Positions 17,797-64,000 of a stretch of DNA of 64,000 bases are shown piece after piece. The translations under genes and the position numbers were made by a program. The DNA lies in contig CAYLJJ010000002.1 of assembly GCA_964384025.1 (NCBI GenBank), positions 130,189 through 194,188 of the forward strand, read 5' to 3'. Origin of the DNA: an uncultured Nannocystaceae bacterium (GTDB taxonomy: Bacteria; Myxococcota_A; Bradymonadia; UBA7976; UBA1532). Position 1 is the stretch's first letter. Every line of letters starts with the position of its first letter. The notes under the pieces were generated by a model that worked only from the letters and a program-made list of their open reading frames with translations, was not told the origin of the DNA and did not search any database.

Positions 17797-17844
17797 GGTC
17801 CCGTTGGCCTATCCTACTAACGACGATCAGCCAGCAACCCCGAG

Positions 17845-20244
17845 TCAGAGATCACTCAACCAGGGCAGGCGAGCGAGAGCCTCACCAGAGGGATGCAGGA
17901 GGAAGGGGTGCTGAACCAACTCCCCCAGGAGCCGACCCAGAGCAGGCAGCTCAGGGATAACTCGCAAGCTGATCTTCTCAGGAGGCAGCAGTAGACGATA
18001 GTCCCCCTCTCCCAAACCGGCTGCCAAGACCGCCAGATCGATCGCTGTTAGAAAGCCTGCCTCCCGATCAACGAGACCACAGGCCAGGGCATGATCCCCC
18101 ATCCAGACTCGCCCAGAAGCCAGGGCCTCCACCTCAGGGAGACCAAGACCCTCTCGGCTCTCAGCCACCCGTTGATGAAAGAGATCATCCAGCGCCTCGA
18201 TCAGCGAGCGATAGGCGATCCGCTCCTCAGGGCTCCAGGGCTTTGAGTGGCTTAGGATGGCGGCGTTGCGCCCTCGAGAGAAGAGCAGATGCTTGACGCC
18301 CAGCTTCTTATAGAGCCCCGAGAGGTTGAACTTGCCACCGAAAACCCCGATGCTCCCTGTGATGGTCTGTGGAGAGACCAGGATCTCTTGAGCTGGGACG
18401 GCGGCGTAGTAGCCCCCAGAGGCGGCTACATCTCCCATACTGACGATCAGGGGCTTCTCCTGAGCTAGGCGGCTCAGCTCCCGCCACATCGTATCTGAGG
18501 CGGAGGCGGAGCCCCCAGGGCTGTCGATCCTCAGGACCACAGCTTTGACTCGGGGATCCTCCCGTAGGCTGCGCAAGGCTTGGAGGAAGCTGTGGGCCCC
18601 TGTGGTGCGATGCCCCAGGGTGGGCTGAGTGAGTGACTCTCCTCCGGTGATCTCGCCCACGATAAAGAGCAAGCCGATCGCGGGCTGGCTGCCCCAGCGT
18701 TGATCTCGGGGGCGCTCCAGCTTGCTCAGCTCCAGGAAGCGCACCGAAGCACCAAAGCGCTCCCGAAAGATCCGGTCAAACTCATCATAGTGGATCAGCT
18801 CATCCAGGAGCTGAGCCTTCTCAGCAGCTTGAACACTATAAGGCCCCCCATCGATGATCGCCTTAACCGTCTCCTCCTTAAGCCCACGCTCGCTCATGAT
18901 CTCCTGGATGACCATCTCATAGAGGTTGTCCAGGATCTGTTCCTCCATACGCGCCGCGTTTTGAGAGGGACCGCTGCGCGTAAACATCTCTGGCGCCGTC
19001 TTAAAGCCCCCACTGGCGACAAACTCCGCCTGGATCCCCAATGAATCTAGAAGGTCTCGGAGGTACCAAAACTGCCCCTTAACTCCAGTGAGCAGGAGGG
19101 CTCCAGCGGGAGGAGCGTAGATGCGCTCAGCGCGTACCGCGATGCTGTAGTTGCGGGTGTCTCCAAAGGGCAGCCAAGCATAGACCACCTTTCCAGCGTC
19201 TCGCAGCGCCTGGATCGAGCGCCGCAGCTCATGGGCCTGAGCCCAACCCAGATCACCCTCCCCAAAAGTCAGGAGAACCCCATCCACATCCTCTCGTCGG
19301 CTCAGATGTCGAAGATCTTGGAGCAGGGTCAAGAAGGGGGTTGAGGGGGCGCCTCCCAGAAGGGGGGCTGGACCCAACTCCTGACTGGCTCCGATAGAGA
19401 CCTCCACCACCAAGGGCGCGCTGCGATAGGGGTCTAAGCTTCCTTCAGAACGATACTCAGCATGGACAGCGAAGCCGTCGCGACCCTCAGGTTTGCTCAG
19501 ATCAGCGCTGTAACCAAAGAAGCCCAGACCCAAGGCGCTGTCCAAAAGTCCCAAGAAGAGACGCTGGACGCCATCATGGTGCTCATAGCGAGCGCTGAGA
19601 CTCAAGGCGCCCCAGAGCTGTAGCTTAAAGCCCCCTCCATACCAGGGGGTCTCCATTCCTCCCTCCTCGCTCCGCAAAGAGGCAGAGAGGCTTAGGGCCT
19701 CGGTCCCTGGGCGCAGCGCCAGGGCGAAGTCATAGCCCCGCTGAATCAACCGCCCTTGGTGAAGCGGGCTGCTCAAATCTCGGATGTTGAGCCCCACCGC
19801 CAACCAACGGCTGGGGCGCAGTTGAAAGCCCAAATCCCAGCTCTCCAGGCCATCTAGGAGTGGGTCTTCATCAGCAAAGAAATAGCTCCAATTGAACCCC
19901 AGAGAGAGGCTTGAGCCCAGACGGAGCGCGTGGCCCCAGCCGAACTTAAGGGGGGCGTGCTCCTGAGCACCAGGAGGGTTGAGGAGTTGGAATCCCAGAC
20001 CCATATGGTAAGGATCCAAGAGCCCAAAAGCGCCAAAGAAAGCTTGCCCCTGCCCCAAGCGCTGCCGTTTGGCTTCGACGAGGGTAAAGCTCAGCTCCAG
20101 CGGATCGGAGAAGGCCAGCCCAGCGGGGTTGCTCTCCAAGGCCGCCGCGCGCTCCTCTGTGGCGACGTCCCCCTGGGGTTGTAGAACCCCCTGGGTAGGG
20201 CGCCAAGCCAGGAGGAGGGGGAGGAGCATCAGGAGTGAGCGCAT
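17845..20244 (-). CDS. sppA: Signal peptide peptidase SppA, 67K type (two S49 domains), with an extra roughly 250-aa N-terminal domain
   Basis: Two S49 cores: IVSMGDVAASGGYYAA and EFVASGGFKTAPEMF. The signal peptide MRSLLMLLPLLLAWRP begins at the internal Met, so the start is moved from the track's 20382 to 20244. Confidence 0.65.
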   Translation of the reverse strand: MRSLLMLLPLLLAWRPTQGVLQPQGDVATEERAAALESNPAGLAFSDPLELSFTLVEAKRQRLGQGQAFFGAFGLLDPYHMGLGFQLLNPPGAQEHAPLKFGWGHALRLGSSLSLGFNWSYFFADEDPLLDGLESWDLGFQLRPSRWLAVGLNIRDLSSPLHQGRLIQRGYDFALALRPGTEALSLSASLRSEEGGMETPWYGGGFKLQLWGALSLSARYEHHDGVQRLFLGLLDSALGLGFFGYSADLSKPEGRDGFAVHAEYRSEGSLDPYRSAPLVVEVSIGASQELGPAPLLGGAPSTPFLTLLQDLRHLSRREDVDGVLLTFGEGDLGWAQAHELRRSIQALRDAGKVVYAWLPFGDTRNYSIAVRAERIYAPPAGALLLTGVKGQFWYLRDLLDSLGIQAEFVASGGFKTAPEMFTRSGPSQNAARMEEQILDNLYEMVIQEIMSERGLKEETVKAIIDGGPYSVQAAEKAQLLDELIHYDEFDRIFRERFGASVRFLELSKLERPRDQRWGSQPAIGLLFIVGEITGGESLTQPTLGHRTTGAHSFLQALRSLREDPRVKAVVLRIDSPGGSASASDTMWRELSRLAQEKPLIVSMGDVAASGGYYAAVPAQEILVSPQTITGSIGVFGGKFNLSGLYKKLGVKHLLFSRGRNAAILSHSKPWSPEERIAYRSLIEALDDLFHQRVAESREGLGLPEVEALASGRVWMGDHALACGLVDREAGFLTAIDLAVLAAGLGEGDYRLLLPPEKISLRVIPELPALGRLLGELVQHPFLLHPSGEALARLPWLSDL

Positions 20245-51678: not shown

Positions 51679-52455
51679 TTAGAAGGAACTGCTGACCACC
51701 TGGATGAGATCCTTGGAGGAGAGATCGGAAGTGACCGCATAGCCCACAGGGCCCTGATTGAAGAGGGCAACTCGATAAGCGCCTCGATCATACATCGCGA
51801 GGCGCCGCCCCTTGATGGCATAGACCTCTGCTCCCTGCTCCAGCTCTATATCCCGACCATCGAAGATCAGGACTGTCAGTTTATGTTCATCAACCCCATA
51901 GATCAGATAAGCGGCGGAACGATCCCGAAAGCCCTCACGGGCTAAGCGGCTGAGGCGACCTCCCAGAAGGGTCGCGCGCTGAAACCGAGGAGCTGCCATA
52001 TCAAAAGAGAGCTTATCTTTGAACCAATCATCCACCTCTCGAGCTTCATCGCTGGGGACCTCTACCGGGACCTGTTGGCAGTGTTGATCCACCGCCTCTT
52101 CAACTACTGGAGCGAAGCCTTGAAGAGGCCCCGAGAGGAGAAAGAGGAGCACCGCTGCGGCCAGAGCTGGGAGAGGCAGCAGGATATTCTTGAGGAGGCG
52201 TCGAGCCCGAGCGGGGCGCTGTGCGCTCTGAAGAGAGTCGAGGAGTCGGGCCTCTACCTCTGGAGGTATATGTTGTCGAGCTTGGAGCTGAGGCCGAATC
52301 GCTCGTTTGAACCAAGCTTGCTGTTCATAATGTTGTCGGCACTGAGGACAGATGGCGAGATGTGCATCAAACTCAGCACGCTCAGGTTCATCTAACTCTC
52401 CATCCAGATAAGGATCGAGAAACTGCTCAAATTCAGTGCAATTGACCCTACTCAT
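51679..52455 (-). CDS. Anti-sigma factor with an N-terminal zinc-finger (zf-HC2 / ChrR-like) motif
   Basis: CTEFEQFLDPYLDGELDEPERAEFDAHLAICPQCRQ matches the H-x3-C-x2-C anti-sigma motif; one TM segment; its start overlaps the ECF sigma stop. Confidence 0.7.
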   Translation of the reverse strand: MSRVNCTEFEQFLDPYLDGELDEPERAEFDAHLAICPQCRQHYEQQAWFKRAIRPQLQARQHIPPEVEARLLDSLQSAQRPARARRLLKNILLPLPALAAAVLLFLLSGPLQGFAPVVEEAVDQHCQQVPVEVPSDEAREVDDWFKDKLSFDMAAPRFQRATLLGGRLSRLAREGFRDRSAAYLIYGVDEHKLTVLIFDGRDIELEQGAEVYAIKGRRLAMYDRGAYRVALFNQGPVGYAVTSDLSSKDLIQVVSSSF

Positions 52456-53102
52456 TGAGCTGCCCTACGTCGGCGCCGAAACATCTCCATATCGGTTACA
52501 TTATCCGCCTGGGCTCCTTCAGGTGCTTCGATTACGCCGCGCTCAACAGCGTACTCAAAGAGCTGCACCTGGAGAAGCTTACGGGCTCGATGAAGACGGC
52601 TCATCACGGTCCCGACAGGGCAGTCTAAGACCTCGGCGATCTCTTTATAGGAGAGGTCATGCATATCAGCGAGGAGGACCGCCATCCGAAACTCAAAAGG
52701 GAGCCGATCTAGGGCTCGCATCACCTCGTCGCCCACCACATGCTTAAGGAAAGCTTCTCGGGTCTCGGGAGGGAGCCAGGGTCTCTCCTCTACAGGATAG
52801 CGCTCCAGCAGATCGTCTACTTGGCGCCCATCCATCACCTTCTGCTCTGTTTGGCGCCGTCTATAGCGGTTGATAAAGATGTTGGTCTGTATTCGGAAGA
52901 GCCAAGCCTTGATATTGGTCCCCTGCTCAAACTTATGCCAGAAACGATAAGCCCTCAGGAAAGTCTCTTGGAGCAGATCCTCAGCTTGGTTCGGATCACG
53001 GGTCATTCGCAGGGCGGCGCCGTAGAGGATATCTCTGTGAGGCATAGCGACCTCTTCAAATTGGGCGTGCTCTCTCTTGCGGCTAAAGAAACTTTTGATC
53101 AT
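52452..53102 (-). CDS. ECF-type RNA polymerase sigma-70 factor
   Basis: Region 2: DLLQETFLRAYRFWHKFEQGTNIKAWLFRIQTN. Region 4: LSYKEIAEVLDCPVGTVMSRLHRARKLL. Confidence 0.85.
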   Translation of the reverse strand: MIKSFFSRKREHAQFEEVAMPHRDILYGAALRMTRDPNQAEDLLQETFLRAYRFWHKFEQGTNIKAWLFRIQTNIFINRYRRRQTEQKVMDGRQVDDLLERYPVEERPWLPPETREAFLKHVVGDEVMRALDRLPFEFRMAVLLADMHDLSYKEIAEVLDCPVGTVMSRLHRARKLLQVQLFEYAVERGVIEAPEGAQADNVTDMEMFRRRRRAAQ

Positions 53103-53182: not shown

Positions 53183-55105
53183 TCACATAAAGGCCAAGCC
53201 GATCGCCAACTCTAACCAGTGCCCCTCAAACTGAAAGCCTGGATCGCTCCCCTTCATCAGACGAAAGGGCAGACGATAGCCCAGATCGATCTCCAAGGGG
53301 ATCTGTGTCCAACCCTCAGGGAGAAAAGAGAAGCCCAGACGTGGACCAAGCCCTGAGCTTTCTCCTGCATAGAGATAGGGGCCAGCGTTCACCAGGAAGC
53401 GGGCTGCCCAGCGCCAGTGAAAGAGAAAGGCGAACTCAAGGCCCTCACCCTGGTTGACCCCGAACTGGTAGCTGGTCATCCAGTTTGCGAAGTCGTCCAA
53501 CTCTGAGAGGAAGACCAAGCGCAGGCCACTCTGATCCTGGTCCTCCCCGATTCTGAGACGGTAACTGAAGAGGATCGACTGATAGGCGAAGGGAGGTGGA
53601 GGAGTGGGGAGGGTGCCCGCAGCGAGCGCTGGCTTGAGGGCATGAAGCTGATCAGGGGGGCGAAGAGCTTGAGTAGGCAGACGCTCACAGATAAAGCGCC
53701 CGATGCCTGGAGAGCTACAACCTGTGCTTGGATCTTCGAAGTTTGGCCCCTCCGCCCACTGAAGCAGGCTGGCGACGCTGGCTCCGACCAACAGGGCGCG
53801 CTGATGTCGCAGTAGGCACTCGGTGATCTCCTGGGGTCGTCGCGCCTGAGTACACTTGAGGGGACCTTGGAGGAGGGGAGGGGCCAGGAGATAGCGATCA
53901 CCATAGGCCATAAACTCTTGCTGAGCGATGGCGGTGGCGAAGCCGGTGATCACCCCATGCTGGTTATCCCGATTGTGAACATAGCGAGAATCGGAGAGCC
54001 CCCAAGCGCCGCGATCAGTGCGTATATGCCCCCCTGCGAAGCTGTCTTGGAGGAAGTGGAGCCCTGAGCCCTCCATGATCAGGGAGAGGAGCGCTGTGGC
54101 GCTCTGCTCCAAGATATTTAAGCTTCGTGGGCTTTTGGGCTGATCCAGGAGAGCTTGGAGGGGGACGCTCACTGCTTGGGTCAACTGAGGATCAGCTCGC
54201 TGAAACCAAACACCCAGGTGCTCCAGGATCAGCTGGCCAAGCAGAGCGCAGCCCAGGGCGCGTCCCTCTGTTGGTTTCAGCTCCTCCCAGTCCAGGGCCT
54301 CAAAGGGAGGATGATCTTCGGAGAGATCCTCCAGCTCCTCTGGATCGATGCCCATAGACTCCCGACAGCCTCTCCTTAAAATCTCCTGAGCTACGCCATG
54401 AAAGCCAAGCCAAGCACCGTAGGCTTCAGCGCCAAAGTGGTGATGGTTTCTGAGCACCAAATCCAGATAGTGGGGGTTATCAAAGCTGTGAGCTGTAGGA
54501 GGATCATGAGGCCCGAAAGGGGCAGGGGCACGGCGAGCATCTTGGAGGAGCCGTTTTGGGAGCGTCTCAAGAGGAGCAGCGAGAGCTTGGCTGAGCTGCT
54601 CGCGAAGCTGCGCCCAGGGAACAGGCTCTTCCGTCTCACAAGCGTCCTCAGCGACATCAGCCTCCACACCTCCAGCATCTCCAGGTTCGCTCATCCACTC
54701 CATAAGCCTCAAGCTGAGCCCAGGCCGCACCGCTCTGGGATGACCTCGAACAGGGCCAAAGAGAGAGAGATGATCAGGCAACGCCACGATATCCCCCAGG
54801 GTGATGGGATGATCCCCCGACTCCACTGGAGGCTCAGCTAAGAGATTGATGCTGCCCTCAAGCTGCTTATACTCATCTAGACAGTAGGGACGATCCCAGC
54901 GCTGGGGACAGAAGAGAGAGAGGGCCAGATAGCGCGCCAAGAGAGGATCGCTGGGAGCCTCTTTCAGGCGTTGAACTAAGCGCTTCTGAGCTTCAAAGCA
55001 GGCCTGATCGGAGAAGAAACTGTGCTCCAGATAGTCAAAGCTCCAGCTCTGAAGAGGGTAGAGGAGAGAGAGCAGCAGGAGGGCGCGGAGAGGGCTCCAA
55101 GTCAA
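53183..55105 (-). CDS. Hypothetical secreted protein
   Basis: Signal MTWSPLRALLLLSLLYPLQSWS; no recognisable catalytic motif; its start overlaps the upstream gene's stop. Confidence 0.4.
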   Translation of the reverse strand: MTWSPLRALLLLSLLYPLQSWSFDYLEHSFFSDQACFEAQKRLVQRLKEAPSDPLLARYLALSLFCPQRWDRPYCLDEYKQLEGSINLLAEPPVESGDHPITLGDIVALPDHLSLFGPVRGHPRAVRPGLSLRLMEWMSEPGDAGGVEADVAEDACETEEPVPWAQLREQLSQALAAPLETLPKRLLQDARRAPAPFGPHDPPTAHSFDNPHYLDLVLRNHHHFGAEAYGAWLGFHGVAQEILRRGCRESMGIDPEELEDLSEDHPPFEALDWEELKPTEGRALGCALLGQLILEHLGVWFQRADPQLTQAVSVPLQALLDQPKSPRSLNILEQSATALLSLIMEGSGLHFLQDSFAGGHIRTDRGAWGLSDSRYVHNRDNQHGVITGFATAIAQQEFMAYGDRYLLAPPLLQGPLKCTQARRPQEITECLLRHQRALLVGASVASLLQWAEGPNFEDPSTGCSSPGIGRFICERLPTQALRPPDQLHALKPALAAGTLPTPPPPFAYQSILFSYRLRIGEDQDQSGLRLVFLSELDDFANWMTSYQFGVNQGEGLEFAFLFHWRWAARFLVNAGPYLYAGESSGLGPRLGFSFLPEGWTQIPLEIDLGYRLPFRLMKGSDPGFQFEGHWLELAIGLAFM

Positions 55106-57060
55106 TTTTGATATTCCCGTGTCGCGAAGGGTTTTCCAGGGAGGAGCTTCCCTCCCAATAGGCGCTCTAAAGCCAAAGCCCCAGTCCAGGAGCGAAGGAG
55201 AGGCTGACCCACTCTATCTTGAGCGCGGAGAAGAAGCTGCTCCTCTGGAGCGACTTTAGAGAGCAGCTTACAGGGGAGCTGTTCACAGGAGAGGGCTTGG
55301 CGCGCTCCCTGTTGAGGGAGGTGCTGCTCCAACTGGATAGACTCCAGATCGATGGGCCCTCGGCTGTCCAGATAGAGCGCCCCCCCCCGCTCAAAGAGGA
55401 TCAAAGGGTTCAAAGCTCCCTTGAGGGGAGGACAAGAGATCCACTCCAGCTCCCAGGGATAGCTGCGATCTCGAGCCAAGGCTCGCACCTCTTTGGGGTT
55501 ATCCAGAGCGCAGCTTAGGGCGTTAAGCCAGTCGGCTAAGTCGATCCCCTCAACGCCGACATCCACCGAGAGCCCCTCTCCAAAATAGTCAATGAGGAGC
55601 TGAAGGCTACCCGCCGCGCCCAGCTCAATCTCATCAAAGGGCTCCTCTACCCGATAGCCATCATAGGAGTCCCAAAGGATCCCCCCCACAAGCTCCTCAC
55701 GGAGCAGACCCTCGAATGTCCCTGTCGTGGTTCCAAAGAAGACGGGCAAGCTCTCTCCCTGTTGAGTCACAGCCTCTAGATCGATATGGCGTGTGTCCTC
55801 CAAGAAGGTGTCGATGATGTGGGGATCATCGAGGACAAGCGCAGCGAAGAAATAGGCGAGCCCCTCGCCATAGGCAAGGCGAGGATCAACTTGATGATCT
55901 CGATGAGCGCCTCCTGGAGAGTCATCAGCGCTGTAATGGAGCACAAAATAGTGCCCAAATTCGTGGAGGATGATGTCATCATCAAACTCATCTGTGTCCT
56001 CCAGCTGCCCCCCCAATAGAATGGTGTCTCCTCCGCTGAAGCAGGAGCCACAGGGGAAGGGCAGGCCAGGTTGCCAGATGATCTTGAGGAAGGGGGCGGG
56101 TCCATCGATATGTGGCTGGATGAGCTGGAGAGCGTCATAGAGCGTATCGGCGATGTTAAAGGCACCCTCGGCGGTCCCTTGCGCTTGAATCAAGAGAGGC
56201 TCATCTCCCAAGACAGGCGCTCTCATGCTGTAGGTTGCGTTTCCTTGAAGCTCAGCAACTCGAAGCTCATTTTCACCCACCCGAACCCAAGCTTGAACCC
56301 TCAGCTCCAGCTCCCAGAGGCCATCAAAGCGGCTCTCCATCTGAAAACGACCCTCAGCGTCTGTCCAGCCCTGCTCTACTCTCAAACCACCCCGCAGCAG
56401 CTCCACAAAGAAGCCGCGCGCAGGACGCAGAGGACGTTCTCCGCTAAAACCGGTTTCATCAAAGGGTCGATCGGGATAGAGAACCTGACCCTCTAGCTCC
56501 AGCTGATAGATCTCATCAACCCTCAGGCTATAGGCCCCTCGCTGCTCAGGAGGGAGGCTTAAGGAGAAGCTGCGCGCTTCGCGCTGTTCAGAGATGAGCA
56601 AGCTCCCTGCGCGTCTTCGAGAGATTCCCGCGCCTTCTAACTCCAGGATGAGTTCTGGGGGCTCTATTCGAAAGTGGAGGCCCCGTCCGGCGAGAGCTTC
56701 AACCTCAAAGCGCTGCTCCAGGCCGCAGAGCAGCCCCTCCTGAGGTTGCCCCAGGTTGAGGGTGCGGGGTTCTTCAGGGAGGCAGGGGGTATCTGGCTGA
56801 TCAAGCTCAAAGAGAGGCGGAGCACGATCCAGGAGAGAAGCATCTCCGACCTCAGCCTCCACTGCGAGATCTTCAAGCGCCCCGAGATCTTCAATATCTT
56901 CAATGAGTTCAGGTAGATCCTCTTCAAGTTCTAAGGCGTCGAGGCGCTCAACCCCATACAGACGATCACAACTCCAGAGGAGCCCGATTAGAAACAGGAG
57001 TTGAAATCTTTGAGTTCTCAAGAGCATGACTCCAGCTCTCCAGAGGTTCCCTGGGAGCAC
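55102..57060 (-). CDS. Hypothetical exported protein with a single HExxH zincin motif (putative metalloprotease)
   Basis: DDDIILHEFGHYFVLHY; hydrophobic N-terminus. Confidence 0.4.
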   Translation of the reverse strand: MLPGNLWRAGVMLLRTQRFQLLFLIGLLWSCDRLYGVERLDALELEEDLPELIEDIEDLGALEDLAVEAEVGDASLLDRAPPLFELDQPDTPCLPEEPRTLNLGQPQEGLLCGLEQRFEVEALAGRGLHFRIEPPELILELEGAGISRRRAGSLLISEQREARSFSLSLPPEQRGAYSLRVDEIYQLELEGQVLYPDRPFDETGFSGERPLRPARGFFVELLRGGLRVEQGWTDAEGRFQMESRFDGLWELELRVQAWVRVGENELRVAELQGNATYSMRAPVLGDEPLLIQAQGTAEGAFNIADTLYDALQLIQPHIDGPAPFLKIIWQPGLPFPCGSCFSGGDTILLGGQLEDTDEFDDDIILHEFGHYFVLHYSADDSPGGAHRDHQVDPRLAYGEGLAYFFAALVLDDPHIIDTFLEDTRHIDLEAVTQQGESLPVFFGTTTGTFEGLLREELVGGILWDSYDGYRVEEPFDEIELGAAGSLQLLIDYFGEGLSVDVGVEGIDLADWLNALSCALDNPKEVRALARDRSYPWELEWISCPPLKGALNPLILFERGGALYLDSRGPIDLESIQLEQHLPQQGARQALSCEQLPCKLLSKVAPEEQLLLRAQDRVGQPLLRSWTGALALERLLGGKLLPGKPFATREYQN

Positions 57061-57184: not shown

Positions 57185-59665
57185 TCAGAATGGGATACCA
57201 TCGTCCTCAGCAGCAACTCTATGCGAGCTTAGAAATTCCACAGCGTTCTGAAGGCTCTCTCCACCCAATCCGGCGAATTCCTGCATACCTTTATCGACAG
57301 ACGCGGTGATTATTCTGCTCTGAGCGATCAGCTGGGCAGGTACGAGTTCAGGGATCAGAAAGCTAAAGTCGCCTAGATGCTTGAGGATCTCATCACCGTA
57401 AATCTGAACAATCCACTCCCAGTACACCCCGATCTCAATCTGTTCTGTACCGCTGATCTCACTCCCGCGCTCGATAAAGCTTGCCAGCAAGCTTCTGATC
57501 CGCGCCGTGCGTATCGGAGCTTTGGGTCCTACACCCGAGCAGAGCGCCGAGTAATGAGCCCACCACGCCTGATCTTTCTTCTCCCAGTCTTCACCGCGCT
57601 CCATCGGCGCATCAGGGAGCGTTAGAGAGCACCGCTGGCAGTAGAATGTTGCCATCAGCATGACCGGATCACAGAGCCCCAGACCTCCAGCTGTCAGCGG
57701 CCAGTAGAGCCAAGCATCTGGCAACGCATCGGCCCACTTCTCGAAGCGCTCGAGGAGCAGCGCCCGCAAGCGCGCTGATAGTCCCTCGCCTTCCATATGC
57801 ACACGCGCCACCGCGTGACTGATCGCGTCGAAATGTGCTGCGCCCAGCCTCGCAAAAGGCGCCATACCTCGCACGAGATAGCGCATGTAGCTGTTGTAGA
57901 TGAACACCTTCGAGAGGATCGCTTGTCCAGGACGCTCAAGGCGCTTTTGCAAGCGCTCTTCAAAGCGTTTGAGCGCAGACTCGTTCACCCCCCAATCGCC
58001 GCAGGGCTGAAGCTCCAGGAACGCCCAGCGCAGGCCGCCCCTGGGCAGCTCCTCAGGTTTGTCGCCGCCGATCACGACGGCGCCCGTCTTTTTGGCGTTC
58101 AGCGCGAAGCCAGCATCAGCGCAGAAGGCTTGGATCGCCTCCCACGCTTTCACAGCAGCTTTTGCCTCTGAGGTCACCAACACCAGGTCGTCCATAAAGC
58201 GAATAAGCTGGAGACCGCTGACCTCAAACACATACCGCTCAAGCAATCGAAGGAAGCTCTCCGCGAGCAGATAGGAGAGCGTGGAGTCGAGCGGGATCCC
58301 ACGCAGGACTTCATATACCGAGCCTTGCCGCCTCACGCGCACAGCGAGCATACGCAACATCAGCGCGATCCACCGCTCGGGAAACCCCTGAGCCTCCAGA
58401 ATCTTACGAGCGAGAGCGTGCGAAAAGGAAGGGAAGAAGAGCTTGATATCAGTCCGCAACACAACGATCGGTTTTTGGGGATCTACTGCTCGCAAGAGTC
58501 CAATTTCGCCTCCGAGAAGCATGAGCACCTTCTGCATGGCGTCGGGCTCTTCATCGGCAAAGTTGTGGCCATCATAATGTTCAGTTGTGCTCTGGTTGCG
58601 CGCCTTGGTCTTGAACTCACACATCGAGTCGGGCACAGACAACATAAAAAGCTCAGCCTGTTTTTGGAGCCTCAGACTCTCGACCGAGTTCGGCCACGGC
58701 ATCTCATCGGGTGGATAGACCCTACAAGAACAAAACCCACTGCCGCGTTGTGCAAAGAGCTGCTTCAGAACAATACCCCAACGCATTCCGATCACTGAGA
58801 GCAGAAGCTGGTTGAGTAAGCCATCCGCCAAAAATGGACGCCAGCGATCACGCGCCCATAAAAGCTCTACCTCCACCCCACCCTCGGGCCACTGCCAGCG
58901 CTCTAACCCATGGAGTAGGATGGTTAACGCACCCACGCACTCATTCACCTGTATCTCATCCAGGGCTGTGCTTCGGGCCACCGCGCAAAGCTTTGGGTTG
59001 CGGTAAGGCGAACGAGCCAACTGCAAGAGATTTCCACGCACCTCATCGCGCGAGATCTGCTGCCAGGAATCCCCTTCGGCATAAGCTTGCGTACCCTTCA
59101 CCACCACGTTCTCAGCGCCCGCATGAGCAGCTACAAGCGCATCGAAGAGCTCGAATTCAGGCGTTTCTTCCTCTTCGCTGAGAGCCATCTTGAAGAACGC
59201 TTCTCGCGCGAGTTCTCTTCCGCTTGGATTTGCTCCATCACAGTCGCTGTTTTCACAGGATTCAGCTGGATGAGGGGGCTCTTGCTCTGCGTCTCTTGGC
59301 TCTGCCCAAGCTTCAAGCAACCCACCAAAGAGCGTTCCAAAGCGCGCACGGCGTTCGCCTTCATCGAGCTCTCGATAGAGCCGCTCAATCCAGCACGCGA
59401 CGGTAGCGTCCGAGGCCACTCCCAACCGTGCTTTGTAGATCAGCGCCTCAAGATTCTGGATCTCGGGATGAAGCGGGCGTCCTGCAAAGCGGAGTTCAAG
59501 TAACCCTCTAAAGAGCAGCTCAAGCCGTGCCAGTGGTGTTTTAAGCGAGACCTCTTGGTTGGCTGCCTCGCGGATCTCAGCATAGCGCATACTCAAACGC
59601 TCGCACTGACGCTTTAACTCGTCGAGTTTGGTCTGAGCGACCCTGCGTGCAAATTCAGATTTCAC
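57185..59665 (-). CDS. Large standalone reverse transcriptase (826 aa): a roughly 380-aa N-terminal extension that begins with a coiled-coil-like segment, the RT core in the middle, and a roughly 270-aa helical C-terminal extension. Candidate defense-associated (Abi/UG/DRT-like) RT or rvt-like RT
   Basis: RT motifs 1/2 VVLRTDIKLFFPSFSHA; motif B GIPLDSTLSYLLAESFL; motif C LIRFMDDLVLV (YxDD-type FMDD); motif D/E region AGFALNAKKTGAVV. GTG start with an abutting GGAAGAAGGAAG Shine-Dalgarno. Confidence 0.85.
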   Translation of the reverse strand: MKSEFARRVAQTKLDELKRQCERLSMRYAEIREAANQEVSLKTPLARLELLFRGLLELRFAGRPLHPEIQNLEALIYKARLGVASDATVACWIERLYRELDEGERRARFGTLFGGLLEAWAEPRDAEQEPPHPAESCENSDCDGANPSGRELAREAFFKMALSEEEETPEFELFDALVAAHAGAENVVVKGTQAYAEGDSWQQISRDEVRGNLLQLARSPYRNPKLCAVARSTALDEIQVNECVGALTILLHGLERWQWPEGGVEVELLWARDRWRPFLADGLLNQLLLSVIGMRWGIVLKQLFAQRGSGFCSCRVYPPDEMPWPNSVESLRLQKQAELFMLSVPDSMCEFKTKARNQSTTEHYDGHNFADEEPDAMQKVLMLLGGEIGLLRAVDPQKPIVVLRTDIKLFFPSFSHALARKILEAQGFPERWIALMLRMLAVRVRRQGSVYEVLRGIPLDSTLSYLLAESFLRLLERYVFEVSGLQLIRFMDDLVLVTSEAKAAVKAWEAIQAFCADAGFALNAKKTGAVVIGGDKPEELPRGGLRWAFLELQPCGDWGVNESALKRFEERLQKRLERPGQAILSKVFIYNSYMRYLVRGMAPFARLGAAHFDAISHAVARVHMEGEGLSARLRALLLERFEKWADALPDAWLYWPLTAGGLGLCDPVMLMATFYCQRCSLTLPDAPMERGEDWEKKDQAWWAHYSALCSGVGPKAPIRTARIRSLLASFIERGSEISGTEQIEIGVYWEWIVQIYGDEILKHLGDFSFLIPELVPAQLIAQSRIITASVDKGMQEFAGLGGESLQNAVEFLSSHRVAAEDDGIPF

Positions 59666-60267
59666 TTCCTTCTTCCGTGCTCGACAATGTTATTGTGATG
59701 AACAAAAGCTTTTGGTTGATTCCCCAAAAAGTCACAAAAAATGTTTTTGGTTTGATCTACAAAATAAGGCTCGAAATGAATCCGATTCAACTCAAGACAA
59801 TATTATGGTTGTTTTTTGTCATCTCGTAATTTTGCTATGAAACATAGAAAAAGAGATCTTTAAGATACTCAGGTTTTGTAAATATAAGCAGTTGATAAGT
59901 TTTTATCGCAAAATCTCCAACTAACATGTAATAGTAGCATTTAGCTGGCCGAGCCAAAATGACATTTAATACCATATTATGCCATAATCCTCATTGTAGA
60001 ACCACACAATCAGCTGAAGCAAACATTTGATCTGCATATAATATAAAAAATATTAAGTTAACACTGAAAACCAACTGATTAAATCCGGTGATCTCAACAT
60101 TACATATGAAAAATCGATAACAAGTGCCAGTTCTCAGGAGCCTTGATTCTCTTTGCGCTGTAGATGAAGAGTATACTTCCTTTGACTGCATCTCCGGTCG
60201 CTGTGAGTATGGCTTCGCCTGTGATTGATCATCGGCTGTAGAGTGGAGAGGCTAGAGAATATGATCC
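59666..60267 (-). promoter_or_regulatory. A roughly 600-nt non-coding, strongly AT-rich leader between the zincin gene and the RT gene; candidate promoter plus structured non-coding RNA, as seen upstream of several defense RTs
   Basis: No convincing ORF (only 60-66 codon frames); about 30-35% GC against a roughly 58% host background; local hairpins such as CCAAAAAgtcacaaaaaatgTTTTTGG and CTATGaaaCATAG. Confidence 0.3.
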
Positions 60268-60975
60268 CTATTTGAGCACCTCACCATGAGGGAGATTCTC
60301 CCACAGCTCTGTCTGTTCAAAGTAGTCACGATCGATCGCCTTTGCCTCTCCCTGACGAGAGAACATCACCTCACTCAACATATCCAATAAGCCGTTCAAG
60401 TTTGTCTTTTCTGAAAGCTCTTCGATGACACGGTGACCCAATAACCCCATAACTTTGATCGTCACAGGGAGGACGTGCTCTGTCTTATCCTTGAAGCCGG
60501 TCATAAGCTCCTCACCGAAGGTCTCCTCATCCCAGTGTGAATATCGGGTACCTGAGCCATAATCGGTCTCGACGCGCATCGTCTGCAAGGCTGCCAGCTT
60601 GGTGATCGCCGCGTCTGTGAACTTCCCCGTCTCTGGATGGAACAGGCTCATCCATGCGTCCCAACCAAACCCAAGGGTATGTCCGATCTCATGAATGACT
60701 GTCCCTGCGATCTCATGCCCTGTAAAATCGGAGAGGTATTTTGTGTTGAACTCGACGACACCATAAACAACATCATCCCTCTTAAAGGGCTTGTAGGCTC
60801 TGGCGATCGTATTGCTCATCGCTGTAAAGACACCCAAGCGGATGACTACAGAAGAGCTGGGGATGATGTAGCGGTTCCAGAAATTGCACGCAGTTCGAGC
60901 AGCTCCTTTGAGTCGCCCATCCACATCACCGATGATCTTATAGGTGACCAAGTTATCAGCATTGAGTGTATCCAT
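60268..60975 (-). CDS. Cytoplasmic zincin-like metallopeptidase (HExxH; possible aspzincin-like third ligand in ETDYGSG), upstream of the AT-rich leader and RT
   Basis: GGAGG RBS; no signal peptide; VIHEIGHTLGFGWDAW plus downstream ETDYGSGTRYSHWDEE; GC about 49%, lower than the host. Confidence 0.6.
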   Translation of the reverse strand: MDTLNADNLVTYKIIGDVDGRLKGAARTACNFWNRYIIPSSSVVIRLGVFTAMSNTIARAYKPFKRDDVVYGVVEFNTKYLSDFTGHEIAGTVIHEIGHTLGFGWDAWMSLFHPETGKFTDAAITKLAALQTMRVETDYGSGTRYSHWDEETFGEELMTGFKDKTEHVLPVTIKVMGLLGHRVIEELSEKTNLNGLLDMLSEVMFSRQGEAKAIDRDYFEQTELWENLPHGEVLK

Positions 60976-61279
60976 CTGCTTGCCTCCATCTGCTCAACTG
61001 CTCAAGTTCGACCTATGCCTGGATCGAAAACCTAGGCAGCATGTATCACACCGTCAGAATCAATAGCTCAAACCAAAATCTTAGACAATAGCTTCGATAT
61101 GAAAAAGCTTCATAGACTCAAACTCCCCAGCAAAAAAGGATCTGTTTGAGACCCAAGATCTCAATGCTCTTATGGACGCTCATCATCGATCTGTGAATGA
61201 GCTACGCTGGACTTTTGCCATCTGAGCGGTTATGGAAATCTCCCCTCGCGATTGTGGGGCAAGCAGAAGGAGTAGGAAG

Positions 61280-61585
61280 ATGGCGGAGGCTCTAGAACAG
61301 AACATTCCTATCTTTGAGATGATCCAAGCTTTAAGGCAGGAGCTGCAAGCGTGTATCGAAGAAGGCAAAGGGCACCCTCTGAGATTTGAGCTGGGCGAGA
61401 TCGACTTAGAGCTTCAGGTTCAGGTCTCTAAGAAGAAGGCAGGAGGGCTTGATTTTAGCATCATCAAGGCGGGTATAGATCGGAGCGATATCACCACACA
61501 TATCTTTAGATTAAAGCTCAATCCGATTTTGGATGGAGATGATGGACCTATCCCAGTAAGTGATGAGGTCGTAGAACTGGATTAA
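61280..61585 (+). CDS. Small (101 aa) acidic protein translationally coupled to the trypsin-like protease gene; possible Trypco-type (trypsin-co-occurring) partner
   Basis: RBS GGAGTAGGAAG before the ATG at 61280 (the track's upstream Met at 61232 lacks an RBS); its stop lies 3 nt before the next start. Confidence 0.55.
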   Translation: MAEALEQNIPIFEMIQALRQELQACIEEGKGHPLRFELGEIDLELQVQVSKKKAGGLDFSIIKAGIDRSDITTHIFRLKLNPILDGDDGPIPVSDEVVELD

Positions 61586-61588
61586 GAT

Positions 61589-63865
61589 ATGTCCTATGAA
61601 GCGGAGCGCCTAGCTCAAATCCAAGGGAAGGGCTTTGGGACCGGCTATGACCTAGGGAATGGGCTTATCCTGACCGCCTGCCATGTGATCCAAGGGGTCA
61701 AATTTGGAGAGACTCCTCAGAGGGTTCAGGCCCGATTTCTCGATGAAGAGGGGCTAACCAACTGGCTTGAAGCTGATGAGGTCTGGTTCAGTCGCTCTCA
61801 AGATCTCTGGGTAGGCCGTATTCAGACAAGCAGAAAACTCACCTCGATAGAAAAACGTCCTCAGCACGATGGAATTGGGTTCACCATCGGTTTTCCAAGG
61901 ACCATCGCCGAAGGTGCTCGAAATCAAATCCGAGACACTCAGGGCTTGGATGTCAAGATCCAGTCAAAGGGGGGACATCGCTCCCAACGCATCCAGATCG
62001 ACTATCAAGGCGCAGCTCCACCTTCAGAAAACTGGGCGGGGCTCTCTGGAGGTCCTCTTTTCCTTGGAGATGATCTGGTCGGGGTTATCGTCAGTGTTCC
62101 TCCAAAGGCCGGTGGAGGGTTTTTATGGGCCAGCCCTCTTGACGAGATGATTAAGAACCTCCCTGTTCCCTATCATCCACCTGAATCAACCGTAGAAGGC
62201 AGGGTACCGCTCAAAATTAGACTAGAAATAGAGGGTAATCGTCTTTATGCTTACCATAGCCAGCCAAAATCGGGGAGTTTTTATAAAACTTGGAGTTCAT
62301 TAAGCGAAAGCAGGTCATTATTCACACGCTATAGCGATGGAAATGAGACTGAGGCGGATAAAGATCTGGCGTTTTCAATGCTATTTGGAGATGAATGCCA
62401 ACAAAGCAAAATTTTTCGTCATGTTTTCGGGAAAAAATTTGGCCCTGCTCCATCACCAGATCGTTACCCAATCGAACTTGATCTTATCATCTGTGATCTT
62501 GAGTTTCAGTCTTTTCCATGGACATCTTTATCTTGGAGAGGAAAGTTTATCGACAATTGGTGGATTCATGCACGATCAGGAGGAGAGAGAAGAAACATCA
62601 ACTTTCATATTCCATGTTCAGCTCTTTTGATCGGCTCTGATCTAGAAGATGTAAAGGAGCTTCTCTTAAGATACTGGCCAGTGGAAGAGAGCAAACTAAT
62701 CCAAAATGTCGAGAATTGGTCTCAAGTTGATCCGAAACGAAGATATCGGTTTATCTGGGACAAAACCGGAGAGAGCCCCCATAGGCTAAGGTATGAGCCT
62801 GAAATCCTAGTTAGAGACTCTATGCCACCATTGGTCAACTCTCCTTTGGGAGCAGCCTTCCGACTCCAGGCAGGTCGGAGATGTGAACACCATAAAATCT
62901 TGATGGATTGGCTCTATGCTTGGCTTGGAGAGAGCAATGATCCGACCCAAACTCTGAATATGCTCCCAAAAGCCCGAAGAGATCTGAGCTCTATTGGCAA
63001 ATATCAAAGTTGGAAGACAAGACGAACAGCGCGGAGGCGCCCTGTCAAAGATGCTCGATTGCGCCTAGATCGTTTCGCTGCGCGGAGTCAGGGAGGAGAG
63101 CATATTCGCGAGCTTGTCCAAAGCCCTGTACGCAAGTTAGAGATCCTCATCGGCTATGGCTCGCCGGGGAACCACGTTGACTTCTTTGGAAAGCAGCTCC
63201 GTGATCATGTGGCCTCCCAAGAGCGGATCCGTATCTGTCGAGATGAGCTGAGGTTTCCTGAGGCGCGAGGAGAGACGCTGACATCTGACACCTTTATGAG
63301 GAGCCTCCAGCGTGACCTGGAGAGCATGAAGATCGGCCCTGCTCTGCAACACAGGACACCCATCCCGAGCCGTCGTAGCGCTGCTGTATTGATGTTGGAT
63401 TTTGGTCGGATCGGGGAGGAGGAGGAACTCGATACTCGAGATGTTGGAGCCTGGATGGTCTTCTGTGCAGAGAAGCTTCTTCCTTTGGTCCCTGAGCAGT
63501 GCTGCTTTCTGGCTTATGTGGGAATTGAGACCGAGGCTTCACAGGAGACGGCTAGACCGTATATCGAGGATCTCTTTCCCAAAGGAAAAGAGGGTGCTCT
63601 GCACTGTGTTCTTTTGCCTGCCATCGGTCTAGTACCTAAGAGTGAGCTTCAGGATTTTATGAGAGAGCCCGACTTCTGCTCCTGTCCTGATGATTTAGTG
63701 GATGATATCGCCGCCCAACTTCATCAAGAGACAGGCGGAAACTACGAGAGGATCCTTAAGCGCCTAGAGAGAGCTGAACGTCGCTCTTGGAGCGAGTTAT
63801 ATGAGCGTATCAAGGATCAGCCTTCTCCTTCTCCAAGTCAGCTCAAGGCTGGGTTTAAACTATGA
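61589..63865 (+). CDS. Cytoplasmic trypsin-like (chymotrypsin-fold, S1-type) serine protease domain fused to a roughly 550-aa uncharacterised C-terminal region
   Basis: Catalytic His in GLILTACHVIQG, Ser in WAGLSGGPLFLGDDLVGVI (GDSGGP-like); no signal peptide; no P-loop found in the C-terminal part; GC about 47%. Confidence 0.7.
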   Translation: MSYEAERLAQIQGKGFGTGYDLGNGLILTACHVIQGVKFGETPQRVQARFLDEEGLTNWLEADEVWFSRSQDLWVGRIQTSRKLTSIEKRPQHDGIGFTIGFPRTIAEGARNQIRDTQGLDVKIQSKGGHRSQRIQIDYQGAAPPSENWAGLSGGPLFLGDDLVGVIVSVPPKAGGGFLWASPLDEMIKNLPVPYHPPESTVEGRVPLKIRLEIEGNRLYAYHSQPKSGSFYKTWSSLSESRSLFTRYSDGNETEADKDLAFSMLFGDECQQSKIFRHVFGKKFGPAPSPDRYPIELDLIICDLEFQSFPWTSLSWRGKFIDNWWIHARSGGERRNINFHIPCSALLIGSDLEDVKELLLRYWPVEESKLIQNVENWSQVDPKRRYRFIWDKTGESPHRLRYEPEILVRDSMPPLVNSPLGAAFRLQAGRRCEHHKILMDWLYAWLGESNDPTQTLNMLPKARRDLSSIGKYQSWKTRRTARRRPVKDARLRLDRFAARSQGGEHIRELVQSPVRKLEILIGYGSPGNHVDFFGKQLRDHVASQERIRICRDELRFPEARGETLTSDTFMRSLQRDLESMKIGPALQHRTPIPSRRSAAVLMLDFGRIGEEEELDTRDVGAWMVFCAEKLLPLVPEQCCFLAYVGIETEASQETARPYIEDLFPKGKEGALHCVLLPAIGLVPKSELQDFMREPDFCSCPDDLVDDIAAQLHQETGGNYERILKRLERAERRSWSELYERIKDQPSPSPSQLKAGFKL

Positions 63866-64000
63866 CCCTTCCATTTGATCTTCTAAAACATCGCGATGGA
63901 GAAGATATCGATAGAGATCCTGGAGCGACCCAGGCTCGACGCGATCAGCTAAAAGCCCGCAAGATCCCTCAAGATCTCTCCGACCTGAGCCTCTCAGCTC
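63862..64000 (+). CDS. 5' portion of a further gene overlapping the protease stop (ATGA), truncated by the window end
   Basis: ATG at 63862 overlapping the TGA; the frame stays open (MTLPFDLLKHRDGEDIDRDPGATQARRDQLKARKIPQDL...) to the window end. Confidence 0.4.
   Translation, partial: MTLPFDLLKHRDGEDIDRDPGATQARRDQLKARKIPQDLSDLSLSA

Follow-up and report, generated by a model that had tools for sequence, protein, structure and literature searches.

What kind of system is encoded at the right-hand end of a 64,000-nucleotide (nt) stretch of DNA from an uncultured Nannocystaceae bacterium (contig CAYLJJ010000002.1; this whole stretch is referred to as the window), where the genes for a protein of 101 amino acids (aa), a trypsin-like protease of 758 aa and a third protein running past the window end are arranged head to tail? 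The original prediction, made from the sequence and its open reading frames (ORFs), described a three-gene operon resembling the NTP-dependent conflict systems, although of unknown type. The type can now be named, since the locus corresponds to the MoxR ternary systems of iSTAND type (Kaur et al., 2020) and to the loci linked to a diversity-generating retroelement (DGR) (Dore et al., 2023). It belongs to the described iSTAND-type, DGR-linked MoxR ternary conflict systems, and its building blocks have all been described already. The three genes are probably the output arm of a ternary conflict system built around MoxR and comprising four or more genes, with a DGR-hypermutated receptor as its input and a pore toxin as the means of killing. 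The number of genes given originally was therefore too low: there are at least four, followed by DGR genes on the same strand, and the key DGR-diversified sensor lies beyond the window, on the 214-kb metagenomic scaffold that contains it (ENA ERZ23498660 scaffold_63, referred to as L001; window coordinate = L001 + 51588).

The genes are tightly packed. The 101-aa ORF begins at an ATG at 61280, with AGGAG 8-12 nt upstream, and ends with a TAA at 61583-61585; the ATG of the protease gene (61589) follows 3 nt past this stop, and the TGA of the 758-aa ORF (63863-63865) overlaps the ATG of the MoxR gene (63862-63864) as ATGA. The translational coupling of the three genes proposed originally thus stands, coordinates included. 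A longer, 117-aa version of the small protein starting at the in-frame ATG at 61232 was rejected, as the Azospirillum and Streptomyces homologues begin at the equivalent of 61280, and the gene caller run on the source contig also gives a length of 101 aa. No promoter was detected when the divergent intergenic region was scanned.

The 101-aa protein is a Trypco2 protein (Pfam PF19631; aa 10-82 match with E 4.8e-15 and 56 bits, the cutoff being 24.2), and the hidden Markov model (HMM) check thereby confirms the Trypco-type assignment first made by inspection. By phmmer, it is related to proteins annotated by PGAP as “trypco2 family proteins” in Azospirillum lipoferum (4.5e-12) and Streptomyces (8.2e-9). 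Trypco1 and Trypco2 have been given the name Pepco by Evans et al. (2025; bioRxiv 10.1101/2025.11.14.688446), according to whom Pepco pre-assembles as a 9-10-mer beta-barrel, requires its amphipathic N-terminal helix, and turns into a lethal pore once the trypsin-like protease encoded next to it, cutting behind a conserved Ile, has taken off a charged, Pro-rich tail of ~2 kDa. The protein studied here comprises a strongly amphipathic N-terminal helix (aa ~9-28, by computed helix moment) and a beta-rich core; directly past the end of the Pfam domain (aa 82) stands Ile83 (codon 61526-61528), followed by an 18-aa tail, LDGDDGPIPVSDEVVELD, which is 39% acidic and contains two Pro. Ile83 fits the pattern of a candidate cleavage site, and by analogy would be the counterpart of I97 in SsPepco. 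Trypco2 is also found directly upstream of a trypsin-like protease in A. lipoferum and in Streptomyces ADI95-16, the two closest trypsin-head relatives examined, so that the small ORF is not an unconserved neighbour of the protease, a possibility that the original prediction had left standing.

The first 205 aa of the 758-aa protein hold the TACHV and GLSGGP motifs noticed at the outset, which contribute H32 (61682-61684) and S153 (62045-62047) to a candidate catalytic triad; D72 (SQDLW, 61802-61804) can be added to them, and the three residues follow the canonical His-Asp-Ser order. By phmmer, aa 12-194 are homologous (1.1e-10 and 4.4e-11) to two plasmid proteases scoring 39 and 43.7 bits on Trypsin_2, above its cutoff, and each of them is preceded by a trypco2 gene; tblastn with the head retrieved ten plasmid genes, eight annotated as serine protease or trypsin-like peptidase and two as hypothetical. 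PADLOC models match the same stretch (LmuA, 1.8e-6, aa 26-185; RT-Protease_XI, 5.7e-3). A Lamassu system was rejected, as the LmuA match is limited to the protease stretch and the 22-kb locus lacks an SMC-like gene. Hydropathy gives no hydrophobic N-terminus and no signal-like or transmembrane (TM) segment in the 758-aa protein, which is predicted to be cytoplasmic, and no PDZ domain was matched by Pfam. The suggested pairing of a cytoplasmic trypsin-like peptidase, devoid of a signal peptide, with a Trypco-type protein is in this way borne out. It had also been considered that the homologues might be secreted housekeeping enzymes of the HtrA/DegP type, lying beside an unrelated small ORF. Besides a generic resemblance to Trypsin_2, nothing speaks for this explanation, and next to no credence can be given to it: the architecture refutes it, for not only are signal peptide, TM segment and PDZ domain missing, the head is also fused to CHAT and STAND-like modules and coupled to Trypco2 and MoxR, with the same pairing in A. 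lipoferum and Streptomyces.

These modules occupy the ~550 aa of C-terminal sequence that had been set down as uncharacterised. AlphaFold run on the single sequence of the whole 758-aa protein gave an unusable model, with a predicted local distance difference test (pLDDT) score of 35; the AlphaFold (AF2) model of aa 201-758 with 106 homologues in the alignment reached a pLDDT of 87.5, and resolves the region into a dead CHAT domain and an inactive STAND/AAA+-like module. In it, aa 206-430 hold a linker and a domain of caspase-hemoglobinase (CHAT) fold, and aa 431-758 adopt the fold of a STAND/AAA+-class P-loop NTPase with eroded nucleotide-binding motifs. The CHAT dyad is lost, with FIWDKTG and ILVRDSM in place of the YYYGHG and LNAC of TIR-less homologues, and the CHAT core is shortened, ~40 profile positions being missing. 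The Walker-A-like motif is GYGSPGNH (aa 522-529, 63152-63175), with Lys replaced by Asn and Ser/Thr by His, and the Walker-B-like motif is VLMLDFG (aa 600-606); the remark that no Walker A is visible was therefore correct as regards an intact one, this degenerate version being the only trace. Since the CHAT dyad is lost and the P-loop Lys has become Asn, both inner domains are predicted to be catalytically dead scaffolds, and the trypsin head alone is predicted, from its sequence, to keep the residues needed for catalysis. Compared by hhalign with one verified iSTAND, the C-terminal module gives a probability of 20.8% and a P of 1.1e-3 with collinear motifs, suggesting a similarity that is only remote; no further iSTAND sequences for profile comparison were found in plasmids or in loci L013 and L032. 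Neither VMAP-C nor VMAP-M was matched by Pfam (E<=1) in the 758-aa protein.

The third gene encodes a MoxR-type AAA+ ATPase (Pfam AAA_5, E 1.7e-14) with a Walker A motif, GEPGTGKT, at aa 73, and provides, in the overlapping position, the NTPase that agrees with the proposed NTP-dependent conflict system. It is overlapped in turn by a gene for a protein of 1066 aa, which begins with a CoxE-like helical domain, has hydrophobic segments at aa 100-118, 175-193 and 630-648 with a conserved module of ~430 aa between TM2 and TM3, and ends in an FGE-sulfatase domain of C-type-lectin fold (9e-46). A word-indexed homology search with the module of this membrane protein gave eight unannotated matches only, and tblastn with its 641-aa N-terminal part found no plasmid homologue. 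Downstream follow an HTH_17 gene, bAvd (1.2e-10), the template repeat (TR), the reverse transcriptase (RT) of the DGR and a convergent gene for a second, membrane-anchored target of 358 aa, likewise with an FGE-sulfatase domain (2e-49). The RT has the IGxxxSQ motif, a hallmark of DGRs, and in the core comparison of the TR with the variable repeats (VRs) all differences (13 of 13 in VR1, 16 of 16 in VR2) fall at TR adenines and none at other bases. The locus carries a canonical DGR with two targets, and this DGR has been active, since the VRs differ from the TR only at adenines. From the charge distribution (positive-inside rule) and a conserved Cys pair after TM3, we infer that the lectin domains lie outside the cytoplasmic membrane. 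Another, independent assembly of the locus (L002, the Logan assembly of SRR8062321) is identical to L001 over 16,407 nt, its contig ending at locus position 16407, inside VR1; heterogeneity in the population could be what broke off the assembly at this hypervariable stretch.

The relatives of the scaffold place the operon within a family. An exhaustive HMMER search with the C-terminal ~550 aa of the 758-aa protein retrieved 429 representative homologues, 176 of them at E<=1e-10; word-indexed searches with the 758-aa protein and the family profile yielded nothing useful, and the protein as a single query found no relatives in GTDB genomes or JGI metagenomes. At 90% identity, the proteins of the operon are singletons or near-singletons among 15 billion sequences. 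None of the 150 best scaffold homologues has a trypsin head, and among 62 homologues TIR is the head in 35, and CHAT, SIR2 or PNP-like heads also occur. Neighbourhoods were surveyed by ORF calls and HMM scan around five scaffold or membrane-protein homologues and at 26 GTDB loci with the membrane-protein module. About 30 independent loci, essentially every one with enough flank, show the same succession of scaffold, MoxR and membrane protein, and a MoxR homologue stands at the same position in all of the related loci with enough flank. The lectin (FGE) domain is fused to the membrane protein in most related loci, which commonly have another lectin gene too, short and convergent; nine of the loci have a DGR RT homologue close by, TR/VR pairs specific for adenine (two non-A differences at the most) were identified in L017 and L021, with a weaker bias (11/15) in L022, and a conserved helix-turn-helix (HTH) gene stands between target and bAvd in seven. 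The hosts are Myxococcota, Acidobacteriota (Holophagales, Thermoanaerobaculia) and some Proteobacteria. A further arrangement was seen in one related locus (L008 12232-13506 / L009 7057-8331, minus strand), where the membrane protein has no fused lectin and a separate convergent FGE-sulfatase protein adjoins it, with no RT within the flank; the lectin can therefore be supplied in trans.

Heads were also determined in 17 scaffold proteins from the related loci: ~9 have TIR or SEFIR, three an active CHAT and four a helical adaptor-like domain, trypsin being found only at the locus studied. The same exclusiveness is seen for the upstream small ORFs, which in ~24 loci include Trypco2 only here and Trypco1 only in L005, so that Trypco2 is confined to the one family member with a trypsin head. 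Given that both are unique to this locus, the trypsin head and Trypco2 behave as one cassette that replaced the usual head. In an alignment of P0002-P0014, the CHAT His/Cys dyad (YYYGHG, LNAC) is retained where the scaffold has no additional head at its N-terminus, and lost where it is headed by TIR or trypsin; each scaffold protein seems to carry exactly one active effector. As a separate observation, a helical domain of ~90 aa (MDISxxELRRVLDxVLxTDADLxAF...) with no Pfam match starts four of the scaffolds (L021 5922-8279, L023 5955-8258, L024 922-3225 and L033 193-2484), and looks like an effector-associated or death-like adaptor domain.

The survey bears on whether the system kills at all. 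In a social bacterium, the genes might instead form a surface receptor pathway that can be tuned, for instance to recognise kin or prey, to adhere or to signal envelope stress, with a regulatory, not a lethal, output, and several features would suit it: the metagenome-assembled genomes (MAGs) of Myxococcota and Acidobacteriota in which the family is found, the predicted extracytoplasmic position of the lectins, the HTH gene conserved between target and bAvd, and earlier proposals of a signal-transduction role for such cyanobacterial DGRs, cited by Dore et al. We consider such a pathway unlikely, because what this scaffold bears as its head in other family members is a classic death or immune effector (TIR, SEFIR, active CHAT, SIR2), Trypco/Pepco is a demonstrated pore toxin and a defence-type UG37 RT adjoins the locus.

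For the conflict system favoured here, the following sequence of events can be proposed. The variable lectin tips, outside the cytoplasmic membrane, would bind an invader-derived ligand, and the signal would be passed via the membrane protein to MoxR, which would remodel or assemble the inactive-STAND-like scaffold; this remodelling would switch on the trypsin head, and the protease would then remove the 18-aa acidic tail of Trypco2 after Ile83. With the tail lost, the pre-assembled beta-barrel would become a membrane pore and the cell would be killed or arrested, as an abortive defence. The identities of the components, the DGR and the synteny are demonstrated by the sequence analysis; the cleavage of Trypco2 and the pore step are suggested by analogy with the experimentally characterised Pepco-Avs4 pair, and the order of signalling from ligand to protease is deduced from the architecture, following the proposal of Dore et al.

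A different wiring has been stated for ternary systems of the VMAP and iSTAND types (Kaur et al., 2020; PMC7159879), in which the scaffold senses the invader and MoxR licenses the peptidase, which cleaves the protein in the vWA position and so frees the lectin as effector or binder, Trypco2 being a regulator or adaptor and not the toxin. The conserved non-enzymatic middle and C-terminal parts of the scaffold family could well bind ligands, and the long linkers from TM3 to the lectin domain could hold a cleavage site. Nonetheless, it is the lectin tips that the DGR diversifies, not the scaffold, which points to recognition by the lectin; a lectin predicted to be outside the membrane is beyond the reach of a cytoplasmic protease; the occurrence of Trypco2 follows that of the trypsin head, not that of the membrane protein; and Pepco/Trypco proteins are experimentally both protease substrate and toxin (Evans et al., 2025). 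This wiring is accordingly judged improbable for the present locus.

The reading as a lectin-triggered, pore-forming conflict system can be carried further. It is possible, although we advance it tentatively, that the locus is an outside-in immune receptor, in which two hypermutated periplasmic lectins form a repertoire like that of B-cell receptors and detect an invader before or during entry, signalling through a three-TM vWA-like protein, MoxR, a dead-CHAT/dead-STAND platform and the trypsin to a pre-formed Trypco2 pore, and that the scaffold family (at least 429 representatives, missed by Pfam iSTAND) is a distinct, undescribed class of third component. If true, an antibody-like anticipatory recognition would be wired directly to a pyroptosis-like executioner.

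Several observations weigh against the proposed conflict system and have to be set beside it. The trypsin head stays below the Pfam cutoffs, both for Trypsin_2 (E 1.4e-3, 19.8 bits; cutoff 27.6) and for Trypsin (E 0.012, 15.8 bits; cutoff 20.6), and has no match in PDB sequences. The Ile at P1 is not universal, the Streptomyces ADI95-16 homologue having apparently Val in a by-eye comparison, and the tail of the A. lipoferum Trypco2 does not align with the tail found here. Pfam iSTAND (PF19995) gives no match to the 758-aa protein at E<=1, and matches one of 62 family members, with an E of 0.047. In the 1066-aa protein, no vWA domain was detected by Pfam (E<=10) or by a profile search of PDB sequences, the resemblance being at motif level only (REVWLWxDE, LTDGRGL, FVDFGRG), and the membrane topology is derived from a hydropathy window and charge counts only. 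L001 and L002 are identical, and ongoing diversification was not observed. Furthermore, the low GC content and the shortening of the middle domain could mean that the scaffold is decaying.

Base composition deserves a closer look in this respect. The mean GC content of the window is 0.554; that of the Trypco2 gene is 0.464, of the 758-aa gene 0.496, of the MoxR gene 0.565 and of the 1066-aa gene 0.583. The operon was originally described as lower in GC than its host, which applies to its first two genes and not to the MoxR and 1066-aa genes, both host-like. The lowest value in the operon (0.428) belongs to the degenerate CHAT segment 62204-62878, with 0.52-0.53 in the flanking domains of the same gene, and relaxed constraint or a recombination scar of the head swap are possible causes. 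One may ask whether the locus is a decaying or non-functional remnant, in which a scaffold with a deleted CHAT core recently acquired a trypsin/Trypco2 cassette and the fusion no longer signals. The dip to 0.43-0.50 over Trypco2 and the 758-aa gene only, the ~40 absent CHAT positions, and the near-singleton state of the proteins at 90% identity, with no close relative in GTDB genomes or JGI metagenomes, are in line with it. Against it, no ORF is interrupted and translational coupling is preserved, the protease has retained its catalytic triad and the scaffold every conserved motif, and aa 201-758 fold with high confidence in the AF2 model; a dead CHAT is the norm of the family, since TIR-headed relatives have also lost the catalytic residues, and the adenine-confined VR-TR differences speak of a DGR that has been active. 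A remnant is, in our view, very improbable.

Coordinates of the operon, of the DGR genes past the window end and of the divergent neighbouring genes.
Feature	Position in window	Position on L001	Strand	Remarks
Trypco2 (“Pepco”) small protein, 101 aa	61280..61585		+	Pfam PF19631
Trypsin-like serine peptidase head of the 758-aa protein, aa 1-205	61589..62203		+	Homology and candidate triad
Conserved beta/helical linker and degenerate CHAT (caspase/separase-fold) domain, aa 206-430	62204..62878		+	758-aa protein
Inactive AAA+/STAND-type P-loop module with helical lid, aa 431-758, and stop codon	62879..63865		+	758-aa protein
MoxR-like AAA+ ATPase, 5' end (46 codons inside the window)	63862..64000	12274-13221 (full gene)	+	Full gene 315 aa
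Complete two-target DGR and 1066-aa gene	64806-71533 (window-equivalent, past the window end)	13218-19945		Source contig
VR1, 3' end of the 1066-aa gene, last ~125 nt		16293-16416	+	
TR, 124 nt		~17532-17655		
DGR RT		17720-18742		RVT_1 1.2e-13; IGTWMSQ at aa 211, YQDD at aa 243
VR2, end of the 358-aa convergent lectin gene		18869-19945 (gene)	-	
826-aa RT; 46-aa ORF; 235-aa zincin (three divergent genes)	57185-59665; 59835-59975; 60268-60975		-	PADLOC RT_UG37 9e-165 (RT); HEIGH motif, weak Peptidase_M8 (zincin)

As originally described, the operon is divergent from an RT/zincin unit, which consists of three minus-strand genes at 57185-60975. A functional link to this UG37 RT/zincin unit was considered and rejected: none of its genes is present in any of the ~30 related ternary loci, and it is therefore regarded as an independent neighbour, whose presence beside the operon suggests a defence island. 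Further away, at 53183-57060 and 51679-53102 (both on the minus strand), two adjacent proteins of ~640-650 aa without Pfam matches were noted, one of them with a HEFGHY zincin motif; the pair lies downstream of an ECF sigma factor and zf-HC2 anti-sigma pair.

To our knowledge, experiments have yet to work out either a MoxR ternary system or a cellular “antigen sensor” targeted by a DGR. From this point of view, the interest of the locus lies in its compactness: ~10 kb hold a predicted extracytoplasmic hypervariable lectin, one ATPase, one protease (S153) and one small substrate (predicted to be cut after I83), each step being testable. It joins in a single operon the literature on DGR sensors and the protease-activated pore mechanism of Pepco, and a scaffold able to take TIR, SEFIR, active CHAT or helical adaptor-like heads, or trypsin together with Trypco2, informs on how bacterial immune modules recombine. 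The locus is a good candidate for a model, and not a new principle.

Among the known systems, the iSTAND-type vWA-MoxR ternary systems draw their heads from TIR, caspase, trypsin or effector-associated domains, and FGS/FGE is a frequent C-terminal domain in them (Kaur, Burroughs, Iyer and Aravind, 2020, eLife, PMC7159879). The present locus shares with them the succession of an optional Trypco2, a head fused to an inactive-NTPase scaffold, MoxR, and a large protein with CoxE-like N-terminal helices and TM segments; it differs in that its C-terminal module fails the Pfam iSTAND model (P 1.1e-3 by hhalign), a dead CHAT domain is inserted between head and NTPase-like module, and the vWA went undetected in the searches given above. 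The closest reference system, from a cultured strain, is found on plasmid AZO_p2 of A. lipoferum 4B (L036 = NC_016586.1 176929-184098), which encodes trypco2, a 501-aa protease of Trypsin_2+iSTAND type (PF19995 above cutoff), MoxR, and a 1411-aa membrane protein annotated as “O-antigen polymerase”, with ~20 TM-like segments and no lectin or DGR. Homology extends to Trypco2 (the phmmer value given above), to the trypsin head (1.1e-10) and to MoxR (2.4e-47), and the N-terminal 400 aa of the two membrane proteins are matched by hhalign with 96.4% probability and an E of 1.3e-9; a Pfam scan found no vWA in the A. lipoferum membrane protein either. There, the partner ends in an O-antigen-polymerase-like polytopic domain, whereas here it ends in a DGR-targeted lectin. 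The plasmid system thus represents the four-gene logic in a cultured strain, and may serve as a tractable experimental surrogate.

The DGR-linked loci described by Dore et al. (2023/2024; bioRxiv 10.1101/2023.09.22.558884), namely Thiohalocapsa DGR9 and RT clade 5A loci in Chromatiales and cyanobacteria, come close to the present one, and a lectin sensor is proposed there to act through MoxR on a third-component effector. In these loci, MoxR stands directly upstream of a long DGR target, in the N-terminal extension of which a vWA is not detectable, a second short target consists of the lectin only, a trypsin- or caspase-like gene, Trypco1/Trypco2/TIR and HTH lie nearby, and VMAP-C is undetectable. 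By contrast, the family studied here is found mainly in Myxococcota and Acidobacteriota MAGs, and the scaffold domains (dead CHAT and inactive STAND-like) and the three-TM target are resolved, both apparently not described by Dore et al.

The SsPepco-SsAvs4 pair (bioRxiv 10.1101/2025.11.14.688446) has, as here, a small Trypco-family gene directly upstream of the gene for a trypsin-like protease, which is itself joined to a sensor or scaffold, an amphipathic N-terminal helix, and a P1 Ile followed by an acidic, Pro-containing tail of ~2 kDa, the helix and the P1 position being in our case predictions from the sequence. The protease of SsAvs4, however, is part of an active STAND ATPase that senses the phage portal directly; the NTPase-like module here is dead, and the predicted division of labour leaves ATP hydrolysis to MoxR, a protein of its own, and recognition to a membrane lectin diversified by the DGR. 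The VMAP ternary systems (Kaur et al., 2020; PMC7159879) also combine MoxR, a large second protein and a trypsin-headed third component with Trypco neighbours, and are frequently linked to DGR/FGS; membership in them was rejected on the absence of a VMAP-C domain (Pfam, E<=1), the third component here having an AAA+/STAND-type fold and not the alpha+beta domain of VMAP-C. Unlike in the CHAT defence proteases (Csx29 TPR-CHAT/Craspase; SAVED-CHAT 8tl0), the dyad and part of the core are lost and proteolysis is assigned to the trypsin head. Seen against all these systems, the local twists that stand out are the trypsin+Trypco2 cassette on a scaffold that normally bears TIR, the dead CHAT within this scaffold, and the DGR lectin on a three-TM protein, predicted to face outward.

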